Below, in pieces: positions 33,186-47,165 of a stretch of 64,000 nucleotides of DNA. The DNA is taken from positions 136,820 through 200,819 of the IMG/VR virus record IMGVR_UViG_3300007512_001664. One strand, 5' to 3'. The notes under the pieces were generated by a model. That model saw only the letters and a program-made list of their open reading frames with translations, did no database searches and was not told the origin of the DNA. Each line of letters begins with the position of its first letter. The stretch's first letter is position 1. This DNA comes from a virus. Lineage: Duplodnaviria; Caudoviricetes. The position numbers and the translations under genes are program-made.

Positions 33186-33772
33186 ATTTTATAGTAAAAA
33201 AACATCACTTAAACGATACTGGTTTAACGAGACATTATTTAACTTTATACTCTATAGTTTTAGGAATGGAGTCGAAGAATGTATTTGAATTCGGCGCCGG
33301 TTTTTCGACTCAAGCAATGGTTGAGGCGTTAAAATTAACTGGCGGTAAATTAACTAGTGTAGATAAAAGGTCTCTATCTGAGCGAGAAGATATTCCTGAT
33401 GATTTTGTAACTGATAGTAAGGATATATGGTCATTTTGCCCAGGAAACTCTTTAGATGTTGTACCTACTTTAGATCATAGTGAATGTTATGATGTTGTAT
33501 TACATGACGGTTCTCATACTGATGTAGAAGTTACTAAAGATTTAAATAATATAGCTCCATATGTTAAAAGTGGAGGATTAGTTTTAGTACACGACACAGC
33601 TCATTATGATCTCGGTCCTGAAATGAGACGAGGCCTAGCAAATAGTGATTTAATTAAAAAATATAAACACGACGGAACAACATTACCTTATGGTTACGGT
33701 CTGACTATTGTAAAAATATTTGATAACCCTGATAATAATAAAAAAGTTAACATACTATGGAGAAAAGAATAA
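33164..33772 (+). CDS. class I SAM-dependent methyltransferase (Methyltransf_24-like)
   Basis: FEFGAGFS, VLHDGSH, GGLVLVHDT. Confidence 0.85.
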   Translation: METKSDIDFIVKKHHLNDTGLTRHYLTLYSIVLGMESKNVFEFGAGFSTQAMVEALKLTGGKLTSVDKRSLSEREDIPDDFVTDSKDIWSFCPGNSLDVVPTLDHSECYDVVLHDGSHTDVEVTKDLNNIAPYVKSGGLVLVHDTAHYDLGPEMRRGLANSDLIKKYKHDGTTLPYGYGLTIVKIFDNPDNNKKVNILWRKE

Positions 33773-34722
33773 CATTTCTTACAACTCATCGTGACTTCAA
33801 CACAGGCTCTTACAGGATCTGGATTCATGATCTTAATAATTATTTTCAACAATTAAATATACCCTCTCAGATTGCTCATGATATTGGAGATGAAGAGATT
33901 GTTATTGTTGTAAAGGGTGAACTTGAATTAGCTCACAATATAAAAATAGCTCACCCAGAAAAAAAGGTAGGATTAATAAATCCCGCGATAGGTAAATATG
34001 ATTATTGTGATTTTCTTATTGTAGGTTCGATAGAAGAACAAGCAAGTTTATCAATGAACAAAAATGTATTTTTGTATCCGTTAATTGAAGAATTATATCA
34101 AAATATAGATATAAAAGAACATACTGATACAGATGTATTACGTTTTTGCTTTCATGGTCATTACCCTCATTTAGCTAAGTTTGATCCACATGTCAAACTC
34201 GCATTGGAAGAATTTTCTAAAGAGAGGGAAATTGAGCTGCTTATTATTCATGGCCATCCAGAGTTTGATTGGCAAATTGGTCGACCGGATATAAAAATAA
34301 AATATAAGCCATGGCATGCAGGTACAATAGCTCAGAATATTCTATCAGCTGATATAGGATTATGCCCTAATGTTACATATATAGATGATTATAAGCGAGA
34401 TCAGGTTATTGATACTGGAGCATATGACACGGATTATGTAGTTAGGTTTAAAAATAAATCTAACGCTGGTAGAGCGTTTGTTTTTCATCAATTAGGGTTA
34501 CCTGTTGTAACAGATCTTACTCCCAGCAACTTACATATTCTAGGAAACCCTGAACATGGTTTAATTGCCGCAGATAAAGACGGGTGGCTAAAGGCATTTA
34601 GACAGCTATCATCTTCTAATAACAGAAACGAAATGGCATTAAAGGCGAAACAAGAATTTGACAGGCTTTATGATCCGTTAGTATGGGCGAAGAGAATATA
34701 TACACAGCTAAATGAGTTATAA
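33757..34722 (+). CDS. glycosyltransferase-like protein (GT-B)
   Basis: GSYRIW, ADIGLCP, KSNAGR..LGLPVVTD. Confidence 0.6.
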   Translation: MEKRITFLTTHRDFNTGSYRIWIHDLNNYFQQLNIPSQIAHDIGDEEIVIVVKGELELAHNIKIAHPEKKVGLINPAIGKYDYCDFLIVGSIEEQASLSMNKNVFLYPLIEELYQNIDIKEHTDTDVLRFCFHGHYPHLAKFDPHVKLALEEFSKEREIELLIIHGHPEFDWQIGRPDIKIKYKPWHAGTIAQNILSADIGLCPNVTYIDDYKRDQVIDTGAYDTDYVVRFKNKSNAGRAFVFHQLGLPVVTDLTPSNLHILGNPEHGLIAADKDGWLKAFRQLSSSNNRNEMALKAKQEFDRLYDPLVWAKRIYTQLNEL

Positions 34723-35344
34723 AGAATTAGTTTCAAAATATGGCCGTGGTTTAATGAGTCATGTTCAGTATACTGAAATAGCTAAAGAGTTAGAGCCACA
34801 CTGTCCTTGTAATTTACTAGTTTTCGGTTTAGGAGACGACTCTCATTTGTGGCAAAACTTAAACATTAAGGGTGTAACAGTTTTTTTAGAAGATGATCAA
34901 TCTTGGATAGATAAAATTTCAAATAAAAGCACAGAAGATTGTTCATATTTTGAGAATACTAATGAATTAACGGTACATCATATAAATTATAAAACAAAGA
35001 TACAAGATTATCATCAAATAAATCTCGGTGTTAGAGATGATTCATTTTTTGATGAGGAAGAAATTAAAATCGATTTACCTTCTGAAGTAACGGATATTTT
35101 ATGGGATTTTATAATTGTAGATGGCCCGTTAGGTCATCAACCACCACGGCCATATAATGGACCAGGTCGGATGAGTAGTATTTTTTCCGCTTATTCATTG
35201 ATAAAAGAAGATGGCATTATTGTTATAGATGATTATAATAGAGGTATTGAAAAAACATATTCAGATCATTATTTTGGGAAAGAAAATTTATTTAAAATGG
35301 TAGAAGGAAAGGTAGGTTTTTTTAAAAATGCAAAAAAGAGATAA
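34712..35344 (+). CDS. DUF579 (GXM/IRX15-like) polysaccharide O-methyltransferase-like protein
   Basis: CNLLVFGLGDDSHLW..LN..G.TVFLEDD..W, WDFIIVDGP.G, GPGRMSSIFSA. Confidence 0.8.
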   Translation: MSYKELVSKYGRGLMSHVQYTEIAKELEPHCPCNLLVFGLGDDSHLWQNLNIKGVTVFLEDDQSWIDKISNKSTEDCSYFENTNELTVHHINYKTKIQDYHQINLGVRDDSFFDEEEIKIDLPSEVTDILWDFIIVDGPLGHQPPRPYNGPGRMSSIFSAYSLIKEDGIIVIDDYNRGIEKTYSDHYFGKENLFKMVEGKVGFFKNAKKR

Positions 35345-36071
35345 AGGTATAATTTATACAGTTTATAATGCACTGGGTAATATGGAATTTTTTAGAGAAT
35401 TAAGTATCTCTGTAGAGTCTTTTAGAAAATTTCATCCTGATCTTCATATTACTTGCTTTTCTGATATGAAGCCAGATGAGTTATTAAAGTTAGTACCAGG
35501 TATTGATGAATGCATACAAATTAATTGCCAGATATTAAGAGCAAAGGTCGATGTACTTAAGCATTCTCCATATGAAAAGACATTGTTCCTTGATACAGAC
35601 ACAGTTTTTAACTATAATGTTTACGACATATTTGATATGTTAGATGAATATGAGCTAGTTATTACTCATTGTTTGGCTAGAAAGAGAGAAAAATATTCAA
35701 AATGTATACCTGAATATAAAAACATTCCATATGCTTTTTCAGAAGTTAATACTGGTGTTTTAGGATTTAAAAAGTGTGATAATATAGATAACTTATTTGA
35801 TCTTTGGCCGAAATATTATCGTAAGTATTACAATGTTTGTCCATATGATCAACCTACATTTAGAGTTTCTTTATGGGAATCAAAAGCTAGATTATATATT
35901 TTACCTCCAGAGTATAATGCTAGGAGTAAACAGAACAGAGAAAAACAAAGAACGTTTCATCATGAATTTGGTCATGAGCATCTTAGAGAGAGAATTCTTC
36001 ATATGCATCATAAACAAAAAAATCTCGATTCAGCATTACAATATTGCTTAGAGAATTATCTTGAATATTAA
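35328..36071 (+). CDS. GT-A (GT8-like) glycosyltransferase
   Basis: SPYEKTLFLDTDT, NTGV, DQPTFR, EYN. Confidence 0.78.
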   Translation: MQKRDKGIIYTVYNALGNMEFFRELSISVESFRKFHPDLHITCFSDMKPDELLKLVPGIDECIQINCQILRAKVDVLKHSPYEKTLFLDTDTVFNYNVYDIFDMLDEYELVITHCLARKREKYSKCIPEYKNIPYAFSEVNTGVLGFKKCDNIDNLFDLWPKYYRKYYNVCPYDQPTFRVSLWESKARLYILPPEYNARSKQNREKQRTFHHEFGHEHLRERILHMHHKQKNLDSALQYCLENYLEY

Positions 36072-37669
36072 TGATTTGGACCAATACATCTCTTTTTGAT
36101 TCTCTTTTACCAAAAGAGCTAGTAACAACTACTCCAAGTAAAGCTACGTCAATTATATTAGGTGCTCCGCCTATAGATATAAAATTATTCCCTAATGTTA
36201 AATTTGTTTTTCGTGCAGGAGTTGGTACAGATAATGTAAATTTTTCTTCTGACATACAAGTAGAGTTTCCTTCAGTAAAAACTAAGAATTACATCTATGA
36301 AGAAACTGCAAATTTTACTTGTAGTTTAATATTTAAAATGTTATATGATGGTATAGGAGACTTAACATCATGGAGTAGTACTCAAAGACACGTTCTTACA
36401 AATAAGACTCTTCTTATTATCGGTCTAGGTAATATAGGACAAAGAGTTAAACATAAAATGGCTCCGTTTATTAAAAATATATTAACTTATGATATTTTAA
36501 ATGATGATAGACCTCCTGATTACAGTAAAGCTGATATAGTTACTCTTCATATACCTTATACTCCTCAAAATAAGAATTTTATTAATAAAGAAAATCTTAA
36601 GAGATTTAAATCTGATGCTATTTTAATTAATACGGCTCGCGGTCCTTTAGTTAATGAAGATGATCTTTACCATCACTTAAAAATTACTAACATGCGTGCC
36701 GCGTTTGATGCTTTTTGGGAAGAGCCGTATACAGGTAAGCTTACTGAATTTAAAAGTGATAAGTTTTTCATGACACCTCATATAGCTAGTTCTAGTATAG
36801 AGTTTATTGAAGGTTGTTACGAAGATTTTAAATCACATCATGTACAAATTGCCGGTGCCGCTCGTCATCTGACGGATAAAACCCCGGAACTAGATAAAGC
36901 CATAGAGTATACGGCGGGGTCGTATACTAACTTCTTAAAAGGTAAGAAAGTTATTATTATTGGCCCAGCACAGTATGTTACTACTAAACCGTTCTATGGT
37001 TTTGGTGAAAAAATAGATAAAGAATTTGACGTTGTAGTAAGATTGAACAGAGGGTTAGATGTCATAGATAAGTACAAACCATATATCGGCTCTAAAACAG
37101 ATGTATTTTATAATTGTCTTATAGAGCATAAAGATAATGGAGGTATAATAGATATTAATAGACTTAAAGATCATAACATACAGTGGGTATGTACAATACC
37201 ACATTCTGATATTAAAGGTAATTGCCATAATAACAGGTTAAGTCCGATGGTCAATTTACAAACCGTATCTAAGATAGCAAACAATTTTAATTTTCACGTA
37301 ATGGATTATAGATTGTATGGAGAATTAAACAAAGGAGTAGCTTGTAGAGCTAATACTGGTTTTGCAGCGATATTTGATCTGTTAAATCGCGATGTTGAGT
37401 CTCTTTACGTTACTGGCTTTAGTTTTTATTTAGATAATTTTACACCAGGTTATAAAGAAGGTTGTACGAGAGATGAAGAGGAATTTGCTAAGCAATGTTT
37501 TGCATCTAAACGACATAATCAAGTAAATCAATGGGAGTATTCTCGTAAACATTTAAAAGATAACCCTAAAGTTATTTTAGACGACGTATTAACTAAAATT
37601 TTAAATTTAAAAACTCTTAGTAGAGAAGAATTTAATGAAAAAACTCAAGATTTATATAGTAACGTATAA
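36071..37669 (+). CDS. D-2-hydroxyacid dehydrogenase fused to a GT29 sialyltransferase-like domain
   Basis: N-terminal: IGLGNIG, LHIP, INTARG, DAFWEEP, TPHIAS. C-terminal: KKVIIIGPA..IDKEFDVVVRLN..GSKTD (sialylmotif L-like) and NTGFAAI..LYVTGFSF (sialylmotif S-like). Confidence 0.78.
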   Translation: MIWTNTSLFDSLLPKELVTTTPSKATSIILGAPPIDIKLFPNVKFVFRAGVGTDNVNFSSDIQVEFPSVKTKNYIYEETANFTCSLIFKMLYDGIGDLTSWSSTQRHVLTNKTLLIIGLGNIGQRVKHKMAPFIKNILTYDILNDDRPPDYSKADIVTLHIPYTPQNKNFINKENLKRFKSDAILINTARGPLVNEDDLYHHLKITNMRAAFDAFWEEPYTGKLTEFKSDKFFMTPHIASSSIEFIEGCYEDFKSHHVQIAGAARHLTDKTPELDKAIEYTAGSYTNFLKGKKVIIIGPAQYVTTKPFYGFGEKIDKEFDVVVRLNRGLDVIDKYKPYIGSKTDVFYNCLIEHKDNGGIIDINRLKDHNIQWVCTIPHSDIKGNCHNNRLSPMVNLQTVSKIANNFNFHVMDYRLYGELNKGVACRANTGFAAIFDLLNRDVESLYVTGFSFYLDNFTPGYKEGCTRDEEEFAKQCFASKRHNQVNQWEYSRKHLKDNPKVILDDVLTKILNLKTLSREEFNEKTQDLYSNV

Positions 37670-38528
37670 GAGATCAGATGTTTTAAATGATACATTAGAA
37701 AAATTATTTAAATCTGATTTCTCTCAAATACCAAATACAGAAGTTAATATAATTAACAATCATACTGACTTTAAACTTAATTCGCAATTTAAAGACAAGG
37801 TTAATGTATTACATAACGTCCTTAGACCAGATTGGTCTAACGGTAATTTAGCTGAAAATTGGAACCAAGCTTTAATTAATGGGTTTAAAGATCTCAATAA
37901 ACCAGATTGTGAGTATCTAGTTACAATGCAAAATGATACAAGTGTTCATCCTAACTGGTGTAGTAATCTTTTAAAAATGCATAAGAAGTATAATTTTATC
38001 GTAGGTAAGTTTGGCGATAATTTAGTAAGCTATACACCAGCAGCTGTTAAGAAGATTGGCATTTGGGATGAAAATTTCTTTGGAGTACAGTATAAAGAAG
38101 CAGATTATTGGTTACGAGCTTTAATTTTTAATAAAGAAAAATCGTGTATTAATGACATCCTACATGGTATTGAATTGAATAACACTGATGCTCTTGAATT
38201 AGACACAGTAGCTGATCGAGTATTTGTTAAAGAACAAGGTTTTAGAGGAGATGAAACGTTAAAGCGAAGAGCAGATGACTCCGAGCATCAAGAAATTTGG
38301 AAAACTAGATCTGGTATATATAAAGAATATGCTTGGATGTATTTTTTTAATAAATGGAACGGTACATGGATTAAAAAACCGGAAAAATCTCAGTGGGTCA
38401 AGGCATGGCCAGCGGAACTTATTAATAACCCACCTGATATAACAAAATCTAAAATTAAATCTATCATAAAGTATTTGTATTTCGAAAAAGATATAGAAAA
38501 CTTGAAAGGTAAAAATTATTTGTTATAG
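37635..38528 (+). CDS. GT2-like glycosyltransferase
   Basis: IVTYKR, IINNH, MQND, GIWDENF..EADYWLR. Confidence 0.75.
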   Translation: MKKLKIYIVTYKRSDVLNDTLEKLFKSDFSQIPNTEVNIINNHTDFKLNSQFKDKVNVLHNVLRPDWSNGNLAENWNQALINGFKDLNKPDCEYLVTMQNDTSVHPNWCSNLLKMHKKYNFIVGKFGDNLVSYTPAAVKKIGIWDENFFGVQYKEADYWLRALIFNKEKSCINDILHGIELNNTDALELDTVADRVFVKEQGFRGDETLKRRADDSEHQEIWKTRSGIYKEYAWMYFFNKWNGTWIKKPEKSQWVKAWPAELINNPPDITKSKIKSIIKYLYFEKDIENLKGKNYLL

Positions 38529-38533
38529 ACTAT

Positions 38534-38561
38534 TTGACAAACTATTGTAATTATATATATA
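38534..38561 (+). promoter_or_regulatory. possible sigma70-like promoter (TTGACA..TATATA) before the first neuA-like gene
   Basis: Perfect -35 box in a 36-bp intergenic gap; -10 register ambiguous. Confidence 0.45.
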
Positions 38562-38564
38562 AGG

Positions 38565-39266
38565 ATGAAGATTTTTATACCAATTAAACATGAATCTCAG
38601 AGAGTACCTGGTAAGAATTTTCGGCAATTAAGCGGTCTACCTCTTTACAAACATACACTTTACAAATTAAAAGATTATAAGGTTTTTGTTGATACGGATA
38701 GTGATGAAATAATTCATAATATACGTAATGATGTTAATTTAAGGAATGTTGTTACTCTTAAGAGACCTCATTATTTATGTGGTAACGATGTATCAGTAAA
38801 TAAACTTATTGATAATCTTTTAAATGGGCATTGGCGCGGCGGAGCAGAGACATCTACAGTTATAGAGCCTAGCGATGTCGTATGTCAAATTCATGTAACT
38901 AGTCCTTTCCTTAAATTAGAAACTTTAGAGAAGGCGTATAAGTTTTTTGAAAATGATAAGTGTGATTCCGTTGTTAGTTGTAATTTAATAAATTCTCGTT
39001 TATGGAGAAAGGAAGAATATGGTTATTGTCCCGTAAATCACAACCCTCTAAAACTAGAACAAACTCAATCACTTCCAACGTTGTATGAAGAGAATTCTGC
39101 TTTTTATATGTTTAAAAAAAGTGTATTTACTACTATTAAAAATAGGGTAGGTAAAAACCCAGCTTTCTTTAAAGTCGATCATCCTGAGAATTTTGATATT
39201 GACACAGAAGATAATTGGCGGGAGTGTTTAAAAATTAATGAGACTCTTATGGCAACAACTTCCTAG
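38565..39266 (+). CDS. neuA: acylneuraminate/ulosonate cytidylyltransferase (NeuA-like) 1
   Basis: IPIKHESQRVPGKN, VDTDS, HVTSPF, EENSAFY, DIDTEDNW. Confidence 0.85.
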   Translation: MKIFIPIKHESQRVPGKNFRQLSGLPLYKHTLYKLKDYKVFVDTDSDEIIHNIRNDVNLRNVVTLKRPHYLCGNDVSVNKLIDNLLNGHWRGGAETSTVIEPSDVVCQIHVTSPFLKLETLEKAYKFFENDKCDSVVSCNLINSRLWRKEEYGYCPVNHNPLKLEQTQSLPTLYEENSAFYMFKKSVFTTIKNRVGKNPAFFKVDHPENFDIDTEDNWRECLKINETLMATTS

Positions 39267-39918
39267 TCCAACAATTACAGAGATATTATGTAATTCTACA
39301 TTTGACGGAGTAGTCTTCGATCTCGAACATGGATGCTTTAATAATGAGACATTGTATACCTGTATACAGGTATGTTTACTTAAAAACAAATTATGTTTTA
39401 TTAGAGTTACTTGGCTAGATAAGACTGTTATTAGAATGAGTTTAGATGCTGGTGTGTCAGGAGTTATATTTTCAACAGTACAGAATTATTTTAAAGCTAA
39501 GGAGTATTATAATTACTGTTTTTACCCACCTAAAGGTAGTAGAGGACAAGGTTTAGTCAGAGAAAATGAGTGGGGTAATAAAGATTTTAAAAAACGTGAC
39601 CCTATAGTTGTAGCTCAAATAGAAACACGAACAGGTTTAGATAATATAAGCATTATCGCAGAAGTAGATTTTGATTATTTTATGGTTGGGCCATATGATT
39701 TATCCGCAAGCTTAGGATGTGTTGGTAATTTTGATTCCCCTGTATATAAAACAGCTATAGAAAAATTAAAATCGAAAGTCGGAAATAAACTTGGTTATCA
39801 CATAGTTAAAAATATTGAAGATCAATTAGATATTTACAGAGATTCAGAGTTTTTAGCTTTATCAATGGATACACTTTTTCTTATTGACGGAATAAAGAGG
39901 ATCGAGGACGTAAAGTGA
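39238..39918 (+). CDS. HpcH/HpaI class II pyruvate aldolase
   Basis: FDLEHG, LDAG, YPPKGSRG, QIET, VGPYDLSASLG. Confidence 0.9.
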   Translation: MRLLWQQLPSPTITEILCNSTFDGVVFDLEHGCFNNETLYTCIQVCLLKNKLCFIRVTWLDKTVIRMSLDAGVSGVIFSTVQNYFKAKEYYNYCFYPPKGSRGQGLVRENEWGNKDFKKRDPIVVAQIETRTGLDNISIIAEVDFDYFMVGPYDLSASLGCVGNFDSPVYKTAIEKLKSKVGNKLGYHIVKNIEDQLDIYRDSEFLALSMDTLFLIDGIKRIEDVK

Positions 39919-40352
39919 TTTTAATCTCTCATAGAGGTAATTTAACTGGTAAAAATTCTAAATTAGAGAATAAACCTCTCCAAATTCAAACGGTATTAGA
40001 CTTAGGGTTTCATTGTGAGATAGATGTTTGGTTTATAAACGGCGAATATTTATTAGGACATGATGAACCGAAAATTCGTATTAAGGAGTATGCACTTGAA
40101 CATCCTCATCTATGGTGTCATGCTAAAAATTTAGAAGCATTACAGATGATGTTAAAGAATCGTAACATACATTGCTTTTGGCATGAAACAGATCAATATA
40201 CTATTACTTCGGAGCAATTTATTTGGACGTATCCAGGTAAATACGCTTCAGAAAATTGCATTATTGTAGATAATTCGAAAAACCCTCCTAATTATAATTG
40301 TAAGGGTATTTGCTCCGACTATGTACAATCATATAAAACACGTTATTTTTGA
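39915..40352 (+). CDS. short GDPD/PLC-like phosphodiesterase
   Basis: ISHRGN, LEN, CEIDVW, LGHD, WCHAKN, GICSD. Confidence 0.75.
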   Translation: MILISHRGNLTGKNSKLENKPLQIQTVLDLGFHCEIDVWFINGEYLLGHDEPKIRIKEYALEHPHLWCHAKNLEALQMMLKNRNIHCFWHETDQYTITSEQFIWTYPGKYASENCIIVDNSKNPPNYNCKGICSDYVQSYKTRYF

Positions 40353-41721
40353 TCTCGACGGTGTTTTACTAGATAGTAGAGATTTACATTATTACGCATT
40401 TAATGACGCCTTACGTTCAATTAATGAGTCCTATGTTATTTCTCGAGAAGAGCATCTATCTTCATATGACGGTCATACAACTACCACAAAACTTAAATTG
40501 TTAACTAAGGCCAAGCAGCTTCCAGAGAGCAAGTATGACGAAATTTGGAATCTAAAACAACAATTTACAACCGACCGCCTTCAATCCTTACAAGAGAATT
40601 TAGACTTACAACGGTTATTTAAATTTTTAAAAGATAAAGGATTAAAAATATCTATTGCATCTAATGCAATACGTCAAACAGTGTGGACATGCCTTGATAA
40701 AATAGGAGTACTTAGGTATTGTGATCATGTATTAACTAATGAAGATGTGTTTCTTTGTAAACCTAATGCAGAAATGTATATGAGATGTATGATACACACA
40801 AAGACTAATCCAGATGAAACTGTAATTGTTGAAGATTCTCATACTGGAAGAAAAGGAGCTATTAGAAGTGGTTCTCATCTGTGTCCTGTAACAGGGCCAG
40901 AAGAGGTAACATTTAATTATATAACTAATTTTATTCAAAATAAAGATAAGACTATGGAAGAAATAAAACCTAAATGGCTAGGTGGTGATATGAATGTATT
41001 AATTCCCATGGCTGGTGCTGGTACGCGGTTTGAAAAAGCTGGTTACACCTTTCCAAAGCCGTTAGTTGATGTAAATGGTAAACCGATGATACAGACGGTG
41101 GTCGATAATTTAAATATTGAAGCCAATTATATTTTTATTGTCCAAAAATCTCATTATGAGAAATATCATTTACAAACAGTACTAGAAAACATAGTACCGA
41201 AATGCACAATTGTACAAGTTGAAGGTATAACAGAGGGTGCGGCATGTACTACTCTATTAGCTAAAGAGTTTATTAATAATGATAAACCGTTAATTATGGC
41301 TAATTCTGATCAATATGTAGATTGGGATAGTAATGAATTTATGTATTCTATGGTCGGAGATAACGTGGATGGTGGTATTTTAACTTTTAAATCTACACAT
41401 CCTAAATGGAGTTATGCAAGATTAGGAGATAACGGGTTTGTTACAGAGGTCGCTGAAAAGAAACCTATATCTAATATTGCTACAGTTGGTATTTATTATT
41501 GGTCTAAAGGGTCCGATTATGTAAAATATGCTGAGCAAATGATAGATAAAAATATTAGGACAAATAATGAATTTTATGTTTGTCCTGTGTTTAACGAAGC
41601 TATAGAAGATGGAAAAAATATTAAAATTTTTGATGTACCGAAAATGTGGGGTCTAGGTACCCCGGAGGATTTGAATAATTTTATATCTAATTATGAAAGT
41701 ATGCGCGACAATTCCAATTAA
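40321..41721 (+). CDS. HAD phosphatase fused to a sugar-phosphate nucleotidyltransferase
   Basis: IFDLDGVL, KPNA, VEDS..G (HAD); IPMAGAGTRF, PKPLVDV, NSDQ, EKKPIS, GLGTPED (NTP transferase). Confidence 0.88.
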   Translation: MYNHIKHVIFDLDGVLLDSRDLHYYAFNDALRSINESYVISREEHLSSYDGHTTTTKLKLLTKAKQLPESKYDEIWNLKQQFTTDRLQSLQENLDLQRLFKFLKDKGLKISIASNAIRQTVWTCLDKIGVLRYCDHVLTNEDVFLCKPNAEMYMRCMIHTKTNPDETVIVEDSHTGRKGAIRSGSHLCPVTGPEEVTFNYITNFIQNKDKTMEEIKPKWLGGDMNVLIPMAGAGTRFEKAGYTFPKPLVDVNGKPMIQTVVDNLNIEANYIFIVQKSHYEKYHLQTVLENIVPKCTIVQVEGITEGAACTTLLAKEFINNDKPLIMANSDQYVDWDSNEFMYSMVGDNVDGGILTFKSTHPKWSYARLGDNGFVTEVAEKKPISNIATVGIYYWSKGSDYVKYAEQMIDKNIRTNNEFYVCPVFNEAIEDGKNIKIFDVPKMWGLGTPEDLNNFISNYESMRDNSN

Positions 41722-42337
41722 AAGTAATTCTACTAGAGTAAAGGATAAGAATTTTAAAGATTTAGGAGGTAAGCCTTTATATCAGTATATTATTGATCAT
41801 TGCATACAAGCAGAATGTTTTGATGATATATATGTAGATACTGATAGTCCTGAGATTAATAGTTATTGTGTAAAAAATCAGGTAATATGCATTAAACGTA
41901 AACCTGAACTCACATTAGACACTGCAAATGGTAATGATGTCTTTCACTATGATATAGATTTTATAGGGCATTACGATTTTTACTTTCAATTATATGCTAC
42001 AGCACCATTTTTAAAGCCAGAAACTATTAGAGAGTGTGTAGATAAGTTAACTCATAGTTCAAAGCATGATTCTATACTTACAGCTACAGAAGAATTTGGG
42101 TGGTTTTGGCATAAAGATCAACCTGTAAATTATCAGCCTAATATCTTACCTAGATCTCAAGATGCTACACCTGTTATAAAGGAGACAACCGGTTTATATG
42201 GTATATCGAAAAGCGCATATGATAGGTTTAGATGTCGTGTAGGTGCTACTCCGTATTTCTATATAATTAATGATAGAGCAGAGTGTATTGATTTAGATAC
42301 AAATGAAGATTTTAGTTTAGCAGAGAACATGTTATAA
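41693..42337 (+). CDS. neuA: acylneuraminate/ulosonate cytidylyltransferase (NeuA-like) 2
   Basis: IPIKSNSTRVKDKN, VDTDS, ATAPF, PRSQD, ETTGLY, DLDTNEDF. Confidence 0.85.
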   Translation: MKVCATIPIKSNSTRVKDKNFKDLGGKPLYQYIIDHCIQAECFDDIYVDTDSPEINSYCVKNQVICIKRKPELTLDTANGNDVFHYDIDFIGHYDFYFQLYATAPFLKPETIRECVDKLTHSSKHDSILTATEEFGWFWHKDQPVNYQPNILPRSQDATPVIKETTGLYGISKSAYDRFRCRVGATPYFYIINDRAECIDLDTNEDFSLAENML

Positions 42338-42343
42338 GAATAT

Positions 42344-42940
42344 ATGGAAATTATTAATAATACAGATCCGAATATAGTAAGAAAAACATATGAGTGGTTC
42401 GATCAGCACACACGCTATGGTTCATCTTTTCACGGTGAGTCATTATTGCCGATTGTAAAATCATTAAAAAATGTTAATTCTGTTTTAGATATCGGAACTG
42501 GTCGCGGAGACTTTTGTAATTGGGCTATTGAAAATTTATGTCAAGACGTTACAGGCTTGGATTTTGCTATTACCCCGAATCCAAATTATTTAAATAAAAA
42601 TATTAAATTTATTAAAAATACATCACACGAAATACCATTGCTAGATAACTCTGTTGATCTTGTGGTTTCGTTTGATGTATTAGAACATATAAGACCAGAA
42701 GATATAACAGAAACAATAAAAGAGTTTTCTAGAGTAACAAAAAAATACATGCTACATAAAATATCTTCAACCGCCGCATCAGCAGAATATGGAAAAAATA
42801 ATCCGCATATACAAGAAATCGGTAACTTGCATCTTATACAGCAATCCCGTGGTTGGTGGTTTAATAAATTTAAAGAGTATATTCCTAATTCATCTATATA
42901 CAGATTGGATCGTTGTTTATTTGTAGTTAAAGATGTATAA
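42344..42940 (+). CDS. class I SAM-dependent methyltransferase
   Basis: VLDIGTGRG, GLDF, DLVVSFDVLEHI. Confidence 0.88.
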   Translation: MEIINNTDPNIVRKTYEWFDQHTRYGSSFHGESLLPIVKSLKNVNSVLDIGTGRGDFCNWAIENLCQDVTGLDFAITPNPNYLNKNIKFIKNTSHEIPLLDNSVDLVVSFDVLEHIRPEDITETIKEFSRVTKKYMLHKISSTAASAEYGKNNPHIQEIGNLHLIQQSRGWWFNKFKEYIPNSSIYRLDRCLFVVKDV

Positions 42941-43610
42941 AGCGTGTTGTATTACTAGTATTACGGGTGATAGGTCTAAATTAGTTGATCCGCTATTTGT
43001 TCATCCTAATATCGATTATTTTGCGTTCGTCGATAAAACATATAATAATATAAAAGTATGGAACCAAAAAAAGATTTATGATTTTAGCACTATAGATAAT
43101 TATTCAAATAGGAGAAATGCAAAGATATATAAAATTTTACCTCACCTATTTTTACCTGGGTATGATTATTATATATGGTGTGACGCAAACTGTATTTTTA
43201 AGGAAGACCCGGTTAAATTAATTGAACAGTACTCTGTTGACGCTATATTTTTTTATCATTATAGATATAATACTATTTTTAATGATATAGAAAAAATAAT
43301 TAAGCGCAAGAAAGATCATTTAATTAATATAGATAATTATATAGAATTTTTATCTAATTCTAATTACATAGACGATATGCTCTTACAATTTTCTATGTTT
43401 ATTACTACTAATAGTCATGAAAGTATGTTAATGAGATTAATTTGGTGGGAATTAATATGTAAATTTTCTTCTCGTGATCAAATCTCAGGACCGTATGCTA
43501 TAAAAAAATCAAAAATTAGTTATCACATAATTAAACAGTCTTTAGGGCATGTAACACCATTAAGTAGTAATAATATAGGTATAAAATTTAACCCAAGCAA
43601 GCATGATTAA
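42933..43610 (+). CDS. DUF616 (MUCI70/TOD1-like) putative glycosyltransferase
   Basis: TSITG..D, RRNAKIYKILPHLFLP.YDY.IWCDAN, SRDQIS. Confidence 0.78.
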   Translation: MYKACCITSITGDRSKLVDPLFVHPNIDYFAFVDKTYNNIKVWNQKKIYDFSTIDNYSNRRNAKIYKILPHLFLPGYDYYIWCDANCIFKEDPVKLIEQYSVDAIFFYHYRYNTIFNDIEKIIKRKKDHLINIDNYIEFLSNSNYIDDMLLQFSMFITTNSHESMLMRLIWWELICKFSSRDQISGPYAIKKSKISYHIIKQSLGHVTPLSSNNIGIKFNPSKHD

Positions 43611-44448
43611 AATATGTCATATACGTGGTACACCGGAATATTGGAAGCATGAAAATCTTCCTAGAATTTCAGGTTGTCCTTCAGAAGAAAATAGAGACTT
43701 AATGTATAAATGTTGGAAAGAATATTTTAACATACCGTATCAAGAATTTAAATTACGCATAAGAGAAGCGACTATAAACTATATTAAAGAATTAAATCAA
43801 TTTGATGTTATTTTATATAACAATGAACTGTATCGTGATTTTTTAAAAAATAATAAAATTGATAATATAATGCTATATAGTCAAGACGATGATGATATAT
43901 TATACTTTATACCGGACCATATATCTCCCGGTATGAACATTTATAATTATAGTTATATTGATATAACAAATACTAAAAGACTTGACTATGAATTGGATGA
44001 TAATTTTTGTACGTTTCTTCCTAAAAAATTACAATCAAATCATGCAATATATTTTGTGTTAAATGAGCCAGATTTTATTCAAAACATAAAATCATATGGT
44101 TATATTCGCGCTCATACTATTTATGATTCATACAAAGAGTGTTTAATAGAAAAAAATGTACATATTTCTTATCATGACTATTTTTTTACAACCCAATTTT
44201 ATCATTTAACTAGCTTATCTTTATGGAAAAATATTGCTGGTACTAGTAAAACATCTAGGCATATTAGAGAGTATTTTTTTGAGAAAAAGCAGTTCGATAG
44301 AGATTGTATTTTTAAAATATTTGATTGTTATATAGATTTTATAAAAAAATTTAATATACCAAGACAATTGAACGACGTAAAATATAAAAAAGGAGCGGAG
44401 TTAATTAATACATTTAAAAATCTATACATTGATGTAAGTACTTTATAA
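43603..44448 (+). CDS. hypothetical protein, possibly glycosyltransferase-like
   Basis: Only a QDDDD acidic motif and the island context. Confidence 0.45.
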   Translation: MIKICHIRGTPEYWKHENLPRISGCPSEENRDLMYKCWKEYFNIPYQEFKLRIREATINYIKELNQFDVILYNNELYRDFLKNNKIDNIMLYSQDDDDILYFIPDHISPGMNIYNYSYIDITNTKRLDYELDDNFCTFLPKKLQSNHAIYFVLNEPDFIQNIKSYGYIRAHTIYDSYKECLIEKNVHISYHDYFFTTQFYHLTSLSLWKNIAGTSKTSRHIREYFFEKKQFDRDCIFKIFDCYIDFIKKFNIPRQLNDVKYKKGAELINTFKNLYIDVSTL

Positions 44449-45575
44449 TGAAAATAGCTATTTTATGTTTTGGTCAGCCTAGATTTTTAGATCTAACACA
44501 TGAATATATTAAGCAGGAATTTAATATGCCCGGTCATGATGTCGATTACTTCTTCCATCTATGGAGAGGTGTAGGTTATAACCCAGAAGATTCAATTAAT
44601 AGTACATATGACACAGTACCAGATCTTGATAAGCTAGTTCAGAGCTTTAATCCAAAAATGTGGATTCTCGAGGATTATAAATCTACCGGTTGTCAGATTA
44701 TGTTTGAAAAACATAGGAAGTGGCGCTGGAAAGATCAACATTCATTGGTAGATCTGTGTAATGCTTGGAGTGTTATGAATGATTTTGTTAGTTATAATAG
44801 AGATACTCCTATACCTAATTCCAAACGATTGGAGTATTTCTTCGGACAACATTACAGTATACAAAAATGTTTTAATTTAATTGAACAGTACGAAGAGTTA
44901 AATGGTTTTAAATATGACATTGTAATAAAAATTAGAACAGATATAGTCTATAGAACGCCTAATTTATATAAATCTCCAGAGGTGTATGATTTGCATAAAG
45001 TAGAACATTATACAGATTTTCCTACGGATTATCCTTGTATTAATGTTAAAGGATTACGTATTAATAGATTACAGATAAAAGAGAATACATGGAAAGGTCA
45101 AGATATATCATGTTTTTATAAAGGAAAGTATAGTTTACCGGATGAAGATTATGCTAAGAAGAAAAAATCTATTAAATTTGATTTAAATACACGGTTATGT
45201 TTTAACGACTGGACTATTATCGCTAATCGAGCGGCAGCTCATTATTATTTTGGTAGATGGTTTGAGACATATTTAATAACTTATGGAGAAGATTTATTGT
45301 ATCGTAAAGACAGATATTGGTATAAAAGTCAATCTGATCATACCCTTCAAGGTCATATAGCTTTATATAATGACATTAAAGTTAACAGAGTCAATAGACG
45401 AGATATGAAACTGGTCAGAGAAGATAAACTTGAAGGAGAAAAATCTAAAGATAGTTTATCTAATAAAGCCGTAGTACCGTCGAATAATGAAATAGATCTC
45501 GATAGTTGGATATGGGATAGATGGAAACCAAAAACAAAAACAAAATCAGATTGGACAGTTCAGCAAAAAAAATAA
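44448..45575 (+). CDS. GQPR-family paralog 1 (putative GT-A-like protein)
   Basis: MKIAILCFGQPRF, FFHLW, FFGQHYS, KYDIVIKIRTD. Confidence 0.7.
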   Translation: MKIAILCFGQPRFLDLTHEYIKQEFNMPGHDVDYFFHLWRGVGYNPEDSINSTYDTVPDLDKLVQSFNPKMWILEDYKSTGCQIMFEKHRKWRWKDQHSLVDLCNAWSVMNDFVSYNRDTPIPNSKRLEYFFGQHYSIQKCFNLIEQYEELNGFKYDIVIKIRTDIVYRTPNLYKSPEVYDLHKVEHYTDFPTDYPCINVKGLRINRLQIKENTWKGQDISCFYKGKYSLPDEDYAKKKKSIKFDLNTRLCFNDWTIIANRAAAHYYFGRWFETYLITYGEDLLYRKDRYWYKSQSDHTLQGHIALYNDIKVNRVNRRDMKLVREDKLEGEKSKDSLSNKAVVPSNNEIDLDSWIWDRWKPKTKTKSDWTVQQKK

Positions 45576-46576
45576 AAATTGCTATTTTACTATATGGTCA
45601 GCCTCGCTTTTTTGAGCATACATATAAAAACATACAAGAGGCGTATACTATAGACGGGTGTGAAACCGATTTTTTTGCTCATTTCTGGGAAGATGTTGGG
45701 TTTTATCCTGGTGACGACTATACAGATACATATATAAGGACTAAAGAGAGAGTAGAGAAGTGCCTTATAGATTTACAGGTTAAAGATTATATACAAGAAG
45801 ATTATACTGAGTTAGATCTCCTTGGTGATTCGCAAAAGATAATATATGATTTTTTAACTCAGTCGCGCCGTGACATTTCTCGAATCCGTCCAGTTACTAA
45901 TACACGAGGCCGGTATCATTATGGACAACACTTGAGTTTACATAAATGTTTTTGCTTAATGGAGAAATTTGAACGTCGAAAGAACTTTAAGTATGATGTC
46001 GTTATAAAGGTTCGTAGTGATTGGATCTATTCACCTAGTGACTCCATTACAAAATATAAAGCATATATTGAAAAATTAGTTGAACCTAATTTCATGAAGT
46101 TCGAATGCAAACGACTTACGACTCTTAGTCTCAAAAAATATGACTTACGTACGAAAACAGAATATCATTTATAAAAAGCGGATTGTAAAAAGGCTGATCT
46201 ACACAATTGTGTGATATCTATATCTGATATTTTTATTAATTGTAGTCGAGGCGCCGCGAAGTATATTTTTAAAGATTGGTTATTTTATTATAATTATCTT
46301 CAATGCATATACACCCATAATTATGGTTCTTTAAAAAATATACTCGAAGAAAAAGAAAAATCATATAATAAAATTAATCGTATTTTAGGCGATATTTGTA
46401 TGATAAATGGTATCGGAGCTTTTAAGTGTTCAAAATCAAGTATAAAAATTCATCGACTTATGTTAAAGGATAAATGTAAGAAAAAATGGGTGAACTCTAG
46501 GCGTCGTATAGTCTTACCGGATTTGAATTGTAATATACCACAATATATCGAACAAGCTTTACATGAAAACAAATGA
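45572..46576 (+). pseudogene. GQPR-family paralog 2, with ATA start and in-frame TAA at 46172-46174
   Basis: Tracked ORFs 45521-46174 and 46211-46576 are in the same frame and separated only by one TAA. The second half matches the C termini of the paralogs. Confidence 0.7.
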
Positions 46577-47165
46577 CATAATAATAGTCCCTAAAGTTCC
46601 TAAATGGGAGTCTCATAAAACAGAAGGAGAAGTCATTGGTCCATGTAAAACTCGAAAAGATATAGGAGCATTATGTCAAAAACTAGGTTGTAACAAGCGT
46701 GGTGTTGAATTAGGTGTGGCAAAAGGTAATTTCACATTTCAAGTACATAAGTATTTTGATCAGTTTTGGAGCATTGATAGTTGGTGTGATGTGCGACATG
46801 ATACTAAACAATATGAGCGATTTAAACGCAAGATATCACGCAAAAAAATTACAAATATTAATGTAGTTCGCTCTGATTTTAACACAGTAGTTAAATCGTT
46901 TGACGATTATTTTTTTGATTTTATTTATATTGACGGTTATGCTAAAGCCCATCATCAATTACGACTTAATTTAAAAAATTGGTTTATTAAACTAACTCCA
47001 GGAGGTATTTTCTCAGGTCATGACTGGCAATATCCACACGTACAGGAGATTATTAATGAGTTCGCAATTGATAAAAAATTAAATTTAAATGTTACCGGTG
47101 AACAGCATTATGGTTTGTCTGGTAGAATAAACACAAAAGGTCCTACATGGTGGTTTAAAACATGA
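46563..47165 (+). CDS. class I SAM-dependent methyltransferase (Methyltransf_24-like)
   Basis: GVELGVAKG, SIDSW, FDFIYIDG, GGIFSGHDW. Confidence 0.87.
   Translation: MKTNDIIIVPKVPKWESHKTEGEVIGPCKTRKDIGALCQKLGCNKRGVELGVAKGNFTFQVHKYFDQFWSIDSWCDVRHDTKQYERFKRKISRKKITNINVVRSDFNTVVKSFDDYFFDFIYIDGYAKAHHQLRLNLKNWFIKLTPGGIFSGHDWQYPHVQEIINEFAIDKKLNLNVTGEQHYGLSGRINTKGPTWWFKT

Follow-up and report, generated by a model that had tools for sequence, protein, structure and literature searches.

The 64,000-nucleotide stretch analysed here (the window; positions 136,820 to 200,819 of the record IMGVR_UViG_3300007512_001664) belongs to the 200,819-bp genome of an uncultured marine T4-like phage, which is complete as judged by its direct terminal repeats and a CheckV value of 100%. 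Window positions 36071-39918 encode four genes with overlapping or nearly abutting ORFs on the + strand, and these lie within a ~24-kb glycosyltransferase/methyltransferase island. The features of the region are as follows.

33757..36071 (+): conserved upstream block comprising a 321-aa protein without assigned function, a GXM/IRX15-like methyltransferase and a GT8-like transferase
36071..36835 (+): N-terminal domain of a 532-aa fusion protein (36071-37669), a D-2-hydroxyacid dehydrogenase closest to short 3-phosphoglycerate dehydrogenases (PGDH) and glyoxylate reductases
36923..37669 (+): C-terminal GT29-like (predicted sialyltransferase-fold) glycosyltransferase domain of the same protein
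37635..38528 (+): GT2-like (GT-A) glycosyltransferase, weak match
38565..39266 (+): CMP-transferase 1 (CTP_transf_3, NeuA/PseF-like), the end of which overlaps the aldolase start by 29 nt
39238..39918 (+): HpcH/HpaI-family class II (metal-dependent) pyruvate aldolase, the proposed ulosonic acid synthase
39915..40352 (+): 145-aa minimal GDPD/PLC-like phosphodiesterase-fold protein, overlapping both the aldolase stop and the start of the next gene
40321..41721 (+): HAD (beta-phosphoglucomutase-like) domain fused to a sugar-1-phosphate nucleotidyltransferase
41693..42337 (+): CMP-transferase 2 (CTP_transf_3, PseF-like), confined to the lineage of the window

Residues ~40-245 of the fusion protein match 2-Hacid_dh_C (PF02826, E 2.6e-32). 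The best NCBIfam hit of the dehydrogenase domain is PGDH TIGR01327 (8e-29, far below its cut-off), and a profile of HpcH-linked dehydrogenases hits the Pyrococcus horikoshii PGDH (PDB code 1wwk) at 1.5e-59. The GxGxxG motif and the Arg/Glu/His triad are kept, and GxGxxG, Arg190, Glu218 and His237 are invariant in the dehydrogenase alignment (A4). The fused open frame recurs as a 534-aa frame in two other metagenome records and as six member sequences on five contigs, so it is not a one-off assembly error. At the same time, the fusion is a recent, lineage-specific join, since in 76-77%-identical relatives the two parts are separate ORFs, the dehydrogenase being an ORF of 272-276 aa (relatives G003-G005/L003).

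Residues ~285-532 of the fusion protein are GT29-like. The window's own sequence of this domain hits no Pfam model, but a homologue search returned 918 sequences at E<=1e-3, 57 of 64 homologues hit PF00777 (best E 1e-12), and the family profile hits pig ST3Gal-I (PDB code 2wml) at E 2e-7, aligned through sialyl motif L and the start of motif S. Whether this domain would model as GT29 had been named in advance as a critical point; the AlphaFold 2 model (pLDDT 95.7) aligns best to GT29 structures (Z 14.2-13.6, rmsd ~3 A over ~190-205 residues), followed by GT42 Cst-I/II (Z ~11-12) and MptE/Maf (Z 9-11), with everything else below 7. The conserved His208 and Tyr187 of the GT29-like alignment (A1; residues 482 and 461 of the protein) lie after the motif-S-like segment. 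The domain belongs to a clade with an SH-aLRT support of 100 that is 17/20 HpcH-linked, while other clades are NeuB-linked, which is what a distinct donor would predict.

The product of 38565-39266 matches CTP_transf_3 (PF02348, E 1.7e-13) and is nearest to PseF (TIGR03584, 2e-15; KdsB models only 1e-6) and, in the PDB, to the NeuA/CMP-sialic acid synthetases; the C-terminal D-I-D metal motif is kept. CMP-transferase 2 (PF02348 1e-20; PseF 1.5e-24) is only ~30% identical to CMP-transferase 1, and these are the only two CTP_transf_3 genes in the genome. The aldolase matches HpcH_HpaI (PF03328, E 3.8e-19) and HpaI (PDB code 4b5s, 8e-22), with the equivalents of the catalytic HpaI residues His45/Arg70/Glu149/Asp175 kept; the corresponding H31, R56, E129 and D154 are 99-100% conserved in 120 homologues. 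It is the only HpcH gene in the genome, and its subfamily is almost entirely viral/metagenomic and almost confined to glycan islands of this kind.

Among the accompanying genes, the GT2-like one matches PF00535 below the Pfam cut-off (E 1.6e-4), without any PDB sequence match; it is present near HpcH in 8 of 17 lineages, the same lineages that carry the HAD-nucleotidyltransferase, and also co-occurs with the small phosphodiesterase-like protein. In the latter, an HRG..EN..ExD..HD motif is invariant in 10 homologues, the profile hits GDPD 7e0v at E 0.001, and the best Foldseek hits of the AlphaFold 2 model (pLDDT 93.6) are GDPDs (E 0.01, TM 0.5-0.6); this gene is next to HpcH in 8 of 17 lineages. 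The HAD-nucleotidyltransferase matches PF13419 (1.2e-27) and PF00483 (2.3e-12) and contains a DxDGxxxDS motif; in other lineages, the same two domains occur as separate genes or in the reverse order (NTP-transferase, then HAD). The upstream block (PF21729 2e-32; GT8 weak) travels with the cassette, and the order unknown - GT8-like - (GXM-like) - GT29-like - CMP-transferase - HpcH is kept in lineages 2, 3 and 13-16.

Searches over the whole genome revealed no NeuB (PF03102), KdsA (PF00793) or NeuC (PF02350), whereas the genome contains one GT29-like gene and one MptE/Maf-like gene. Of 45 viral records with a GT29-like gene, 44 carry CTP_transf_3, 17 carry HpcH, 17 carry NeuB and one carries KdsA; no record has HpcH together with NeuB or KdsA. 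The chance of zero overlap is 8e-6 by record and about 4e-3 after a rough collapse to lineages; related phages share islands by descent, so the co-occurrence counts are not independent. HpcH lies within 350 bp of a CTP_transf_3 gene in 16 of the 17 records. Over 17 HpcH lineages, clustered at 65% identity, CTP_transf_3 is within 6 kb in 15 and abuts HpcH in 9, and the GT29-like, CTP_transf_3 and HpcH genes are three consecutive overlapping genes in six diverged lineages. A marine phage with both systems (L030-32) has one CTP_transf_3 fused-in-line with HpcH plus an MptE-like glycosyltransferase, and a second CTP_transf_3 inside a NanE-NeuB-GT29 module, i.e., one synthase, one activator and one transferase per module. 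The only four cellular genomes found with this aldolase subfamily are all MAGs (two Woesearchaeota, one Altiarchaeales and one Verrucomicrobia), and in all four CTP_transf_3, HpcH and the dehydrogenase are contiguous, as they are in three phage lineages; the dehydrogenase belongs to the ancestral trio with the aldolase and the CMP-transferase. In 11 of 17 lineages, the gene following HpcH encodes a GmhA-like sugar-phosphate isomerase (SIS) fused to a HAD phosphatase. SDR epimerase/dehydratases and sugar-1-P nucleotidyltransferases are conserved neighbours as well.

The observation made in the first-pass annotation, namely a GT29 sialyltransferase-like domain, a NeuA-like CMP-transferase, an HpcH aldolase and a 2-hydroxyacid dehydrogenase within 4 kb and without NeuB, NeuC or KdsA, is thus confirmed, although the GT2-like gene between the fusion and the CMP-transferase had been omitted and neither the recent origin of the fusion nor the membership of the dehydrogenase in the ancestral trio had been seen. 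Its interpretation, in which the aldolase replaces the PEP-dependent synthase and makes a short ulosonate (pentulosonate or Dha-like) that GT29 installs, is only partly supported. The GT29 fold of the C-terminal domain, the intact catalytic residues of the aldolase, the absence of a PEP-dependent synthase and the genomic linkage of the aldolase to a CMP-transferase and a sialyltransferase-fold glycosyltransferase, in a pattern complementary to NeuB, all agree with it, and it is therefore reasonable to call this an undescribed phage glycosylation route; no precedent was found in the literature or in cultured phages. The short product, however, is not supported: nothing in the data fixes chain length, and the SIS-HAD fusion in sister cassettes, the conserved SDR and nucleotidyltransferase neighbours and the proximity of the CMP-transferase to the nonulosonate-activating enzymes (PseF/NeuA) rather than to KdsB together point, weakly, to sugar or sugar-phosphate acceptors and C8-C10 products.

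The cassette is probably a PEP-independent route to a CMP-activated 2-ulosonic (sialic-acid/Kdo-like) sugar, a reading that seems more likely than not. In this view, the HpcH-family aldolase would condense pyruvate with an aldose or aldose-phosphate to give a 4-hydroxy-2-oxo acid; in dehydrogenase-bearing variants such as this one, the donor may instead be a hydroxypyruvate-type molecule made by the PGDH-like dehydrogenase. The translationally coupled NeuA/PseF-like enzyme would pull this otherwise reversible reaction forward by forming the CMP-sugar from CTP, and the GT29-like domain would transfer the acid to a glycan that the island builds in the infected cell; since no exporter was recognised in an earlier annotation, the target may be a virion protein. 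The domain identities, the intact catalytic motifs, the absence of NeuB, KdsA and NeuC and the conserved gene linkage are established by the analysis, while the direction of the aldolase reaction, its coupling to CMP activation, the donor specificity of the transferase, the identity of the product and the acceptor are inferred; everything rests on homology and gene linkage rather than on biochemical evidence. Pyruvate aldolases favour cleavage unless pulled by a downstream step, but the combination of an aldolase, a CMP-sialic acid synthetase and a sialyltransferase is an established, thermodynamically workable one-pot scheme in chemoenzymatic synthesis (PMC10795189). The model leaves the role of the dehydrogenase unexplained; a D-2-hydroxyacid dehydrogenase acting on the aldol product would destroy the 2-keto group that CMP activation needs; the second CMP-transferase has no partner synthase; the window's lineage lacks the SIS-HAD gene, so the Kdo-like logic is seen only in relatives; and the window's own GT29-like and GT2-like sequences fall below Pfam thresholds.

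Among the alternatives, all of them unlikely on present evidence, the best surviving one is that the CMP-transferases and the GT29-like enzyme use Kdo or a nonulosonic acid made by the host's own KdsA/NeuB, and that the aldolase is a salvage, catabolic or otherwise unrelated enzyme riding in the island. One complete phage genome (G013, 180 kb) has a GT29-like gene of the same clade and a weak CTP_transf_3, but no HpcH, NeuB or KdsA, so host-made ulosonic acids can evidently serve such transferases; ten of the 45 GT29-bearing records have neither HpcH nor NeuB/KdsA, though most of these are fragments; the window has two CMP-transferases but only one candidate synthase, and pyruvate aldolases are typically catabolic. 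This explanation does not account for the abutment or overlap of HpcH and CTP_transf_3 in 9 of 17 lineages and in all four cellular genomes, for the lack of coincidence of HpcH and NeuB/KdsA among the 45 records, for the SIS-HAD fusion following the aldolase in 11 lineages, or for the near confinement of the aldolase subfamily to these glycan islands.

Slightly more doubtful is the possibility that the aldolase and the dehydrogenase together make a reduced 2,4-dihydroxy (3-deoxy-aldonic) or other 2-hydroxy acid, attached as a non-glycosidic substituent or activated in some other way, with the CMP-transferase acting on a different molecule or forming an unprecedented CMP-hydroxy-acid. The contiguity of the dehydrogenase with HpcH and CTP_transf_3 and its physical fusion to the transferase speak in favour of this, as does the fact that enzymes of this family normally reduce 2-oxo acids, the nearest solved relatives being PGDH and glyoxylate/hydroxypyruvate reductases. 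However, most HpcH lineages have no dehydrogenase (only 8 of the 17 HpcH-positive records carry one), and close relatives swap it for a SIS-HAD gene at the same position. Characterised CTP_transf_3 enzymes are not known to activate anything other than the anomeric hydroxyl of a 2-keto acid sugar, and the GT29, GT42 and Maf transferases, the nearest structural neighbours of the domain, use CMP-ulosonates as donors.

The least likely reading is the short or dicarboxylic ulosonate, e.g., a 3-deoxy-hex-2-ulosaric (Dha-like) acid formed from dehydrogenase-made hydroxypyruvate through isomerisation to tartronate semialdehyde and a GarL-type condensation with pyruvate, then CMP-activated and transferred: GarL and HpaI are the best-scoring characterised relatives of the aldolase, some homologues are auto-annotated as 2-dehydro-3-deoxyglucarate aldolase, the dehydrogenase resembles glycerate/hydroxypyruvate reductases, plant GT29-like proteins have been proposed as Kdo/Dha transferases and the island also holds plant-type GXM/IRX15-like and TOD1/MUCI70-like genes, but all scores against GarL and HpaI are far below the equivalog cut-offs, no hydroxypyruvate isomerase was seen (without a specific search for one), acids of five carbons or fewer may not form the ring hemiketal that CMP activation uses, and the SIS-HAD partner in sister cassettes, the neighbourhood rich in NDP-sugar enzymes and the affinity of the CMP-transferase to nonulosonate activators argue against it.

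Of the described systems, the Kdo pathway (KdsD arabinose-5-P isomerase, KdsA Kdo8P synthase, KdsC HAD phosphatase, KdsB CMP-Kdo synthetase, then a Kdo transferase) has the same logic and three of the four enzyme types: a CTP_transf_3 activator and, in sister cassettes, a SIS isomerase fused to a HAD phosphatase directly after the synthase-slot gene, mirroring KdsD/KdsC with the aldolase in the place of KdsA; a dedicated transferase for a CMP-acid is also present. It differs in that the C-C bond-forming enzyme here is an HpcH/HpaI class II pyruvate aldolase rather than a PEP-dependent DAHP/KdsA-type synthase, the transferase is GT29-fold and not GT30/GT99/GT107, and the window's lineage has a PGDH-like dehydrogenase instead of the SIS-HAD gene. 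The Kdn/Neu5Ac-9-phosphate pathways (NeuB-type synthase on Man-6-P or ManNAc-6-P, a HAD phosphatase such as Bacteroides BT1713, CMP-Kdn/Neu5Ac synthetase, GT29 sialyltransferase) share the NeuA-like CMP-transferase, the nearest solved relative of CMP-transferase 1, the GT29 fold and, in sister cassettes, the logic of a sugar-phosphate acceptor plus phosphatase, but rely on a NeuB-family synthase, which is found nowhere in this genome. The one-pot three-enzyme sialylation (PMC10795189) includes the same three activities in the same order and demonstrates that CMP activation can pull a pyruvate-aldolase condensation forward; that scheme is man-made and employs the class I (Schiff-base) NanA aldolase, catabolic in vivo, whereas here a class II metal-dependent HpcH aldolase is genetically linked to the activator. 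The HpaI/GarL/YfaU(RhmA) 2-keto-3-deoxy acid aldolases of aromatic and sugar-acid catabolism belong to the same Pfam family and have the same catalytic His/Arg/Glu/Asp residues, but at about 30% identity the phage enzyme represents a shorter (226 aa), distinct subfamily (WQQ...DxEHG...GxRGxGL motifs), found in glycan islands of marine phages and a few DPANN archaeal MAGs and not in catabolic operons. Finally, the eukaryotic/viral GT29 sialyltransferases and the bacterial GT42 (Cst-I/II) and Maf (MptE-like) nonulosonate transferases have the same fold as that predicted here (Z 14 to GT29, 11-12 to GT42, 9 to Maf), with motif-L-like and motif-S-like segments aligned by HMMER and a conserved His after motif S; unlike them, the phage protein is a soluble ~250-aa domain fused to a dehydrogenase, in which no signal anchor or disulfide pattern typical of Golgi GT29 was noted, short of a formal test, and the donor of which is probably not Neu5Ac.

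The complete 200,819-bp IMG/VR virus record (G000:C1), of which the 64-kb window (136820–200819) forms the last third, has direct terminal repeats and represents a distant T4-like myovirus. It encodes a family-B DNA polymerase, a gp46/47-like SbcCD pair, UvsW- and UvsX-like proteins, a gp41-like helicase and PhoH; the polymerase is at most 31% identical to those of pelagiphage and cyanophage relatives, and G+C is about 30%. From about 30.0 to 54.1 kb of the window, some 28 co-directional, mostly overlapping genes are nearly all glycosyltransferases, methyltransferases and sugar-nucleotide enzymes, and the genes discussed here lie in the middle of this island. Window positions 34712–35344 and 42933–43610 encode plant-cell-wall-type families, namely, an IRX15/GXM (DUF579, glucuronoxylan 4-O-methyltransferase-like) protein (E 2e-32) and a TOD1/MUCI70-like GT domain (E 7e-12). 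Five paralogous proteins (44448–45575, 45521–46174, 47162–48091, 48088–49122 and 51288–52217; 27–44% identical in tblastn cross-hits) give only faint DUF7796 matches and make up an expanded family inside the island, perhaps a set of glycosyltransferases. A 469-aa protein (49112–50521) combines a weak protein-kinase-like/ABC1-like N-terminal segment with a GT2 domain, and a radical SAM protein (55326–56375, minus strand; PF04055, E 3e-10) and an adjacent 416-aa uncharacterised protein on the opposite strand are found at the edge of the island. Scans of 29–46 kb for promoters, terminators and the T4 late motif TATAAATA gave no signal above chance. The ORFs that fill 36071–39918, and those that follow directly, are:

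36071–37669, a 532-aa protein with an N-terminal D-2-hydroxyacid dehydrogenase and a C-terminal GT29-like domain of 250 residues
37635–38528, a weak GT2-like protein
38565–39266, a CTP_transf_3 enzyme, CMP-transferase 1
39238–39918, an HpcH/HpaI class II aldolase
39915–40352, a 145-aa protein with GDPD/PLC-like features, overlapping the aldolase stop
40321–41721, a beta-phosphoglucomutase-like HAD domain fused to a sugar-1-P nucleotidyltransferase
41693–42337, a second CTP_transf_3 enzyme, CMP-transferase 2

The first-pass annotation had listed a GT29 sialyltransferase-like domain, a NeuA-like CMP-transferase, an HpcH aldolase and a 2-hydroxyacid dehydrogenase within this stretch, without NeuB, NeuC or KdsA, and this observation is confirmed, although the GT2-like protein had been omitted. 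The N-terminal half of the 532-aa protein matches PF02826 (112 bits, E 2.6e-32), and GxGxxG (G118/G120/G123) and the Arg-Glu-His triad (R190, E218 and H237) are invariant in the dehydrogenase alignment. The C-terminal domain of the window protein itself hit no Pfam model directly, PF00777 included even at E ≤ 10, and no PDB sequence, but an exhaustive HMMER search found 918 relatives; of 64 aligned relatives, 57 match PF00777 (GT29; best E 1e-12), and the family profile hits chains of ST3Gal-I, ST6Gal1, ST8Sia3 and ST6GalNAc2 at 2e-7 to 5e-3, with ST3Gal-I at 2e-7. HMMER aligns the GKKV(I/V)xVGPA...IDxxDxVVRxN segment with sialyl motif L and RPNTG...L with the PSTG start of motif S; His208 and Tyr187 of the GT29-like alignment are at least 90% conserved, the former being only a candidate for the catalytic His (motif VS). 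AlphaFold 2 modelling (pLDDT 95.7) predicts the GT-A variant 2 fold shared with solved sialyltransferases: the top 26 Foldseek hits are all GT29 or GT42, and structural alignment gave VIA Z-scores of 14.2–13.6 to GT29 over 183–207 residues (rmsd 2.8–3.4 Å), followed by GT42 Cst-I/II (Z 11–12) and MptE/Maf (Z 9–11), with a sharp drop below Z 7 after MptE, SteA and Maf. The GT29-like domain is therefore real, but its membership of the family is transitive rather than direct.

Both CTP_transf_3 enzymes exceed the profile cut-off (51.4 and 74.9 bits against 22.6) and have the C-terminal DxD metal motif (FDIDTED and IDLDTNED), while the N-terminal P-A-R is replaced by P-I-K in both proteins. The searches did not reach an equivalog-level assignment of the acid that is activated (PseF at 57 and 87 bits against a cut-off of 205.7, KdsB models far lower); CMP-transferase 1 is closest to PseF and to NeuA/CMP-sialic acid synthetases, and much further from KdsB. 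The aldolase belongs to PF03328 (69.3 bits against a cut-off of 25; HpaI structures at 8e-22), and its R56, E129, D154 and H31 align with R70, E149, D175 and H45 of HpaI (catalytic Arg, metal-binding Glu and Asp, and the His of the DxEH motif), being 99–100% conserved in 120 homologues. It falls, however, far below the equivalog cut-offs of HpaI, GarL and RhmA (96, 78 and 64 bits against 369, 407 and 441) and represents a separate subfamily. Searches of the whole genome, with positive controls, found no PEP-dependent synthase (NeuB/PseI/LegI or KdsA; PF03102 or PF00793), and no NeuC was found either; exactly one HpcH gene, two CTP_transf_3 genes, one GT29-like gene and, outside the window, one MptE/Maf-like gene were found. 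The latter, which encodes a sialyltransferase-fold protein (PF01973, 38 bits), belongs to a second small glycan cluster at about 43,800–50,300 of the record (locus L041:7828-14295), with an SDR epimerase/dehydratase, a GT2-like protein, a KaiC-like ATPase and a NodU/CmcH-type carbamoyltransferase, next to a PTPS (QueD-like) gene. In other lineages the MptE-like and SDR genes sit beside the HpcH cassette, so they may belong to the same system and could partner CMP-transferase 2.

The association of these genes was examined from two sides. Starting from the aldolase, 28 viral loci, metagenome and MAG contigs and the GT29-anchored loci together gave 17 aldolase lineages at 65% identity, and the commonest families within 7 kb of the aldolase were counted by lineage.

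Families found within 7 kb of the aldolase, with the number of lineages (of 17)
Sialyltransferase-fold GT (GT29-like or MptE-like): 14
CTP_transf_3 (BLAST cluster): 12
SDR epimerase/dehydratase: 12
322-aa unknown protein: 11
HAD + nucleotidyltransferase: 8
GT2-like protein: 8
145-aa protein: 8

A profile search raised CTP_transf_3 to 15 of 17 lineages within 6 kb; the CMP-transferase directly abuts or overlaps the aldolase in nine lineages, and GT29-like, CMP-transferase and aldolase are three consecutive overlapping genes in six. Starting from the GT29-like domain, 45 viral records carrying one, found with a nine-sequence alignment, were examined: 44 have CTP_transf_3, 17 have HpcH, 17 have NeuB and 1 has KdsA, and no record has HpcH together with NeuB or KdsA. 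The chance of zero overlap is 8e-6 by record, or about 4e-3 after a rough collapse to lineages, although relatedness inflates both figures. On a tree of the GT29-like domains, the window protein falls in an SH-aLRT-100 clade of 20 rows, 17 of which are HpcH-linked, while the other clades are NeuB-linked. One marine phage group (L030-32) carries both systems, and they are cleanly modular: one module is GT2, CTP_transf_3, HpcH, an unknown protein and MptE-like, and the other, 3 kb away in the same phage (L030:12561-17671, a Tara/JGI marine phage contig), is a canonical-looking nonulosonate module of NanE, NeuB, GT29, formyltransferase, polysaccharide deacetylase and CTP_transf_3. The formyltransferase and deacetylase suggest an N-formylated nonulosonic acid.

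A scan of one genome per GTDB species found this aldolase subfamily (47–52% identity) in only four MAGs, two of Woesearchaeota, one of Altiarchaeales and one of Verrucomicrobia, and in all four CTP_transf_3, HpcH and a 2-Hacid_dh gene are contiguous. The dehydrogenase is therefore not an accident of this phage, and aldolase, CMP-transferase and dehydrogenase form a trio outside phages too. Among the 45 viral records, the dehydrogenase occurs only in HpcH-positive ones (8 of 17 against 0 of 28). In 76–77%-identical relatives it is a separate 272–276-aa ORF just upstream of the GT29-like gene; the fusion is thus recent and confined to the window and its two nearest relatives, where it recurs as a 534-aa frame. 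The HpcH-linked dehydrogenases are closest to short 3-phosphoglycerate dehydrogenases (1wwk, 1.5e-59) and to glyoxylate/hydroxypyruvate reductases.

The unannotated 322-aa protein that directly follows the aldolase in 11 of the 17 lineages (e.g., L011:8688-9656 in a sister phage) appears to be a GmhA-like SIS isomerase fused to a HAD phosphatase. Its N-terminal domain gives a profile hit to phosphoheptose isomerase GmhA (5i01, 7.8e-5) and weak SIS hits in 8 of 9 members (best 6e-4), and an ESM-Atlas lead pointed to SIS_2 (0.89); its C-terminal half carries HAD motifs (DFDGV ... T ... K ... DDK) and gives weak HAD hits. Closely related phages, with aldolases at least 65% identical, carry either this SIS-HAD gene (locus L060) or the dehydrogenase (locus L014) at the same position, and the genome of the window has the dehydrogenase, in the equivalent role or position, and no SIS-HAD gene.

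The HRG..EN..ExD..HD motif of the 145-aa protein is invariant, but its profile hit to a GDPD (E 0.001) covers only the first 52 residues, and the predicted structure (pLDDT 93.6) has GDPDs as best Foldseek hits at modest scores (E 0.01–0.06, TM 0.5–0.6); at this length it is only about 60% of a GDPD barrel. A divergent DUF386/YhcH-type protein, as found in the Woesearchaeota cluster, was also considered, but the sequence motif and the predicted fold indicate a GDPD-like protein instead. The HAD and nucleotidyltransferase domains encoded at 40321–41721 occur as HAD-NTPt, as NTPt-HAD or as two adjacent genes in different lineages (compare L060:14745-15836 and L014:12403-13733), a Rosetta-stone pattern for a coupled mutase/phosphatase and nucleotidyltransferase step, which argues that they work together. 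The genes for the 145-aa protein and for the HAD-nucleotidyltransferase fusion and the GT2-like gene occur in the same eight lineages. One speculative possibility is that they make and release the aldose acceptor, by analogy with the NDP-sugar hydrolysis steps of the Pse, Leg and Neu5Ac pathways; another is that they add a second sugar or phospho-substituent. CMP-transferase 2 is only about 30% identical to the first, is confined to this lineage and has no partner synthase.

Moderate confidence can be placed in a mechanism in which the aldolase condenses pyruvate with an aldose or aldose-phosphate; in dehydrogenase-bearing variants the donor may be (phospho)hydroxypyruvate made by the PGDH-like enzyme. 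Hydroxypyruvate-using HpcH aldolases are known (PDB 6r62, a ‘hydroxyketoacid aldolase’, is among the hits of the aldolase). CMP-transferase 1 would trap the product as a CMP-ulosonate, making the reversible aldol step productive, and the GT29-like domain would transfer the acid onto a glycan built by the island. An earlier annotation alone records no flippase, Wzy or ABC exporter in the island; this would fit a cytoplasmic target such as virion proteins, but that is inference. The analysis itself establishes the domain identities and the gene linkage, whereas everything beyond them, including the catalysed reactions, the product and its acceptor, is inferred; the use of a CMP-activated ulosonic acid as donor is deduced only from the fold and from the linkage to CTP_transf_3. 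The interpretation of the first-pass annotation, in which the aldolase replaces the PEP-dependent synthase and makes a short ulosonate that GT29 installs, is partly supported, but the SIS-HAD partner, the SDR and NDP-sugar neighbours and the PseF/NeuA-like (rather than KdsB-like) activator lean weakly towards C8–C10, not towards a short acid.

Of the alternatives, each considered unlikely, the best surviving is that the transferases use host-made Kdo or nonulosonic acid and that the aldolase is unrelated. A complete phage genome (G013, IMGVR_UViG_3300030330_006573; 179,985 bp, CheckV 100%) with a GT29-like gene of the HpcH-linked clade and a weak CTP_transf_3, but no HpcH, NeuB or KdsA, shows that this is possible and is a natural test case for the use of host-made ulosonic acid; however, this reading leaves the tight aldolase/CMP-transferase coupling and the NeuB complementarity unexplained. 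Slightly less likely, aldolase and dehydrogenase may together make a reduced hydroxy acid, which fits the conserved trio but conflicts with the frequent absence of the dehydrogenase or its replacement by SIS-HAD, and with the known activities of CTP_transf_3 and GT29-fold enzymes. A short or dicarboxylic Dha-like acid made via tartronate semialdehyde is the least likely product. A phosphonate reading, with HpcH as a PEP-mutase-like enzyme and a CMP-aminoethylphosphonate-type activation, was rejected because the HpaI catalytic residues are conserved and the activator is CTP_transf_3, not a LicC/PntC-type enzyme; Pfam scans of the island also revealed no decarboxylase or aminotransferase partners.

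More tentatively, marine T4-like phages and a few DPANN archaea may possess a previously undescribed, PEP-independent route in which a dedicated class II pyruvate aldolase subfamily makes one or more new ulosonic acids. Variants may differ by feeder enzyme (SIS-HAD versus a PGDH-like dehydrogenase, the latter perhaps yielding a 3-hydroxylated Ko-like acid or an ulosaric acid), and the acids would be CMP-activated and installed by a phage-specific GT29 clade, in the phage case probably onto virion proteins. Full-text searches on HpcH with cytidylyltransferase/ulosonic acid, GT29 with phage, heptulosaric acid biosynthesis and HpcH with capsule/CMP found no paper linking HpcH aldolases to CMP-sugar synthesis, and the SugarBase preprint reports new CMP-ulosonic acids but no aldolase route. 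A DNA comparison of the 3.8-kb stretch with GenBank phages gave no match, protein searches of GenBank phages for the aldolase subfamily and the GT29-like domain found only an unrelated 29.5% Staphylococcus phage hit, or nothing, and PHROGs has no family for the GT29-like domain, the GT2-like protein, either CMP-transferase or the aldolase. The cassette is common: more than a thousand aldolase homologues score E ≤ 1e-20 in metagenomes, and 17 diverged lineages were sampled here, none in a cultured phage.

CMP-ulosonic acid pathways (Kdo, Neu5Ac, Kdn, Pse, Leg and relatives) are not known to form their sugar other than with a PEP-dependent KdsA- or NeuB-family synthase, and genome mining for sialic-acid-like sugars relies on those markers. 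If the aldolase route is real and hard-wired, such sugars are being missed in viromes and in DPANN archaea, the cassette would give glyco-engineering a compact natural set of synthase, activator and transferase, and unknown acidic sugars would be expected on marine phage particles or infected cells, with consequences for host recognition, grazing and particle stickiness; in the more tentative reading, a third kind of ulosonic acid synthase would be added beside the KdsA and NeuB families. The proposed trapping of the aldol product by CMP activation is exactly how aldolase/CSS/sialyltransferase one-pot syntheses work (PMC10795189). The cassette would be a form of CMP-ulosonic acid biosynthesis and transfer that differs from the described pathways in its C-C bond-forming enzyme. 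A phosphosugar isomerase fused to a phosphatase, as the 322-aa protein of the sister phages appears to be, placed next to a C-C bond-forming enzyme and a CMP-transferase, is the logic of KdsD-KdsA-KdsC-KdsB and also that of the Kdn-9-P route, and in both comparisons the aldolase sits in the synthase slot.
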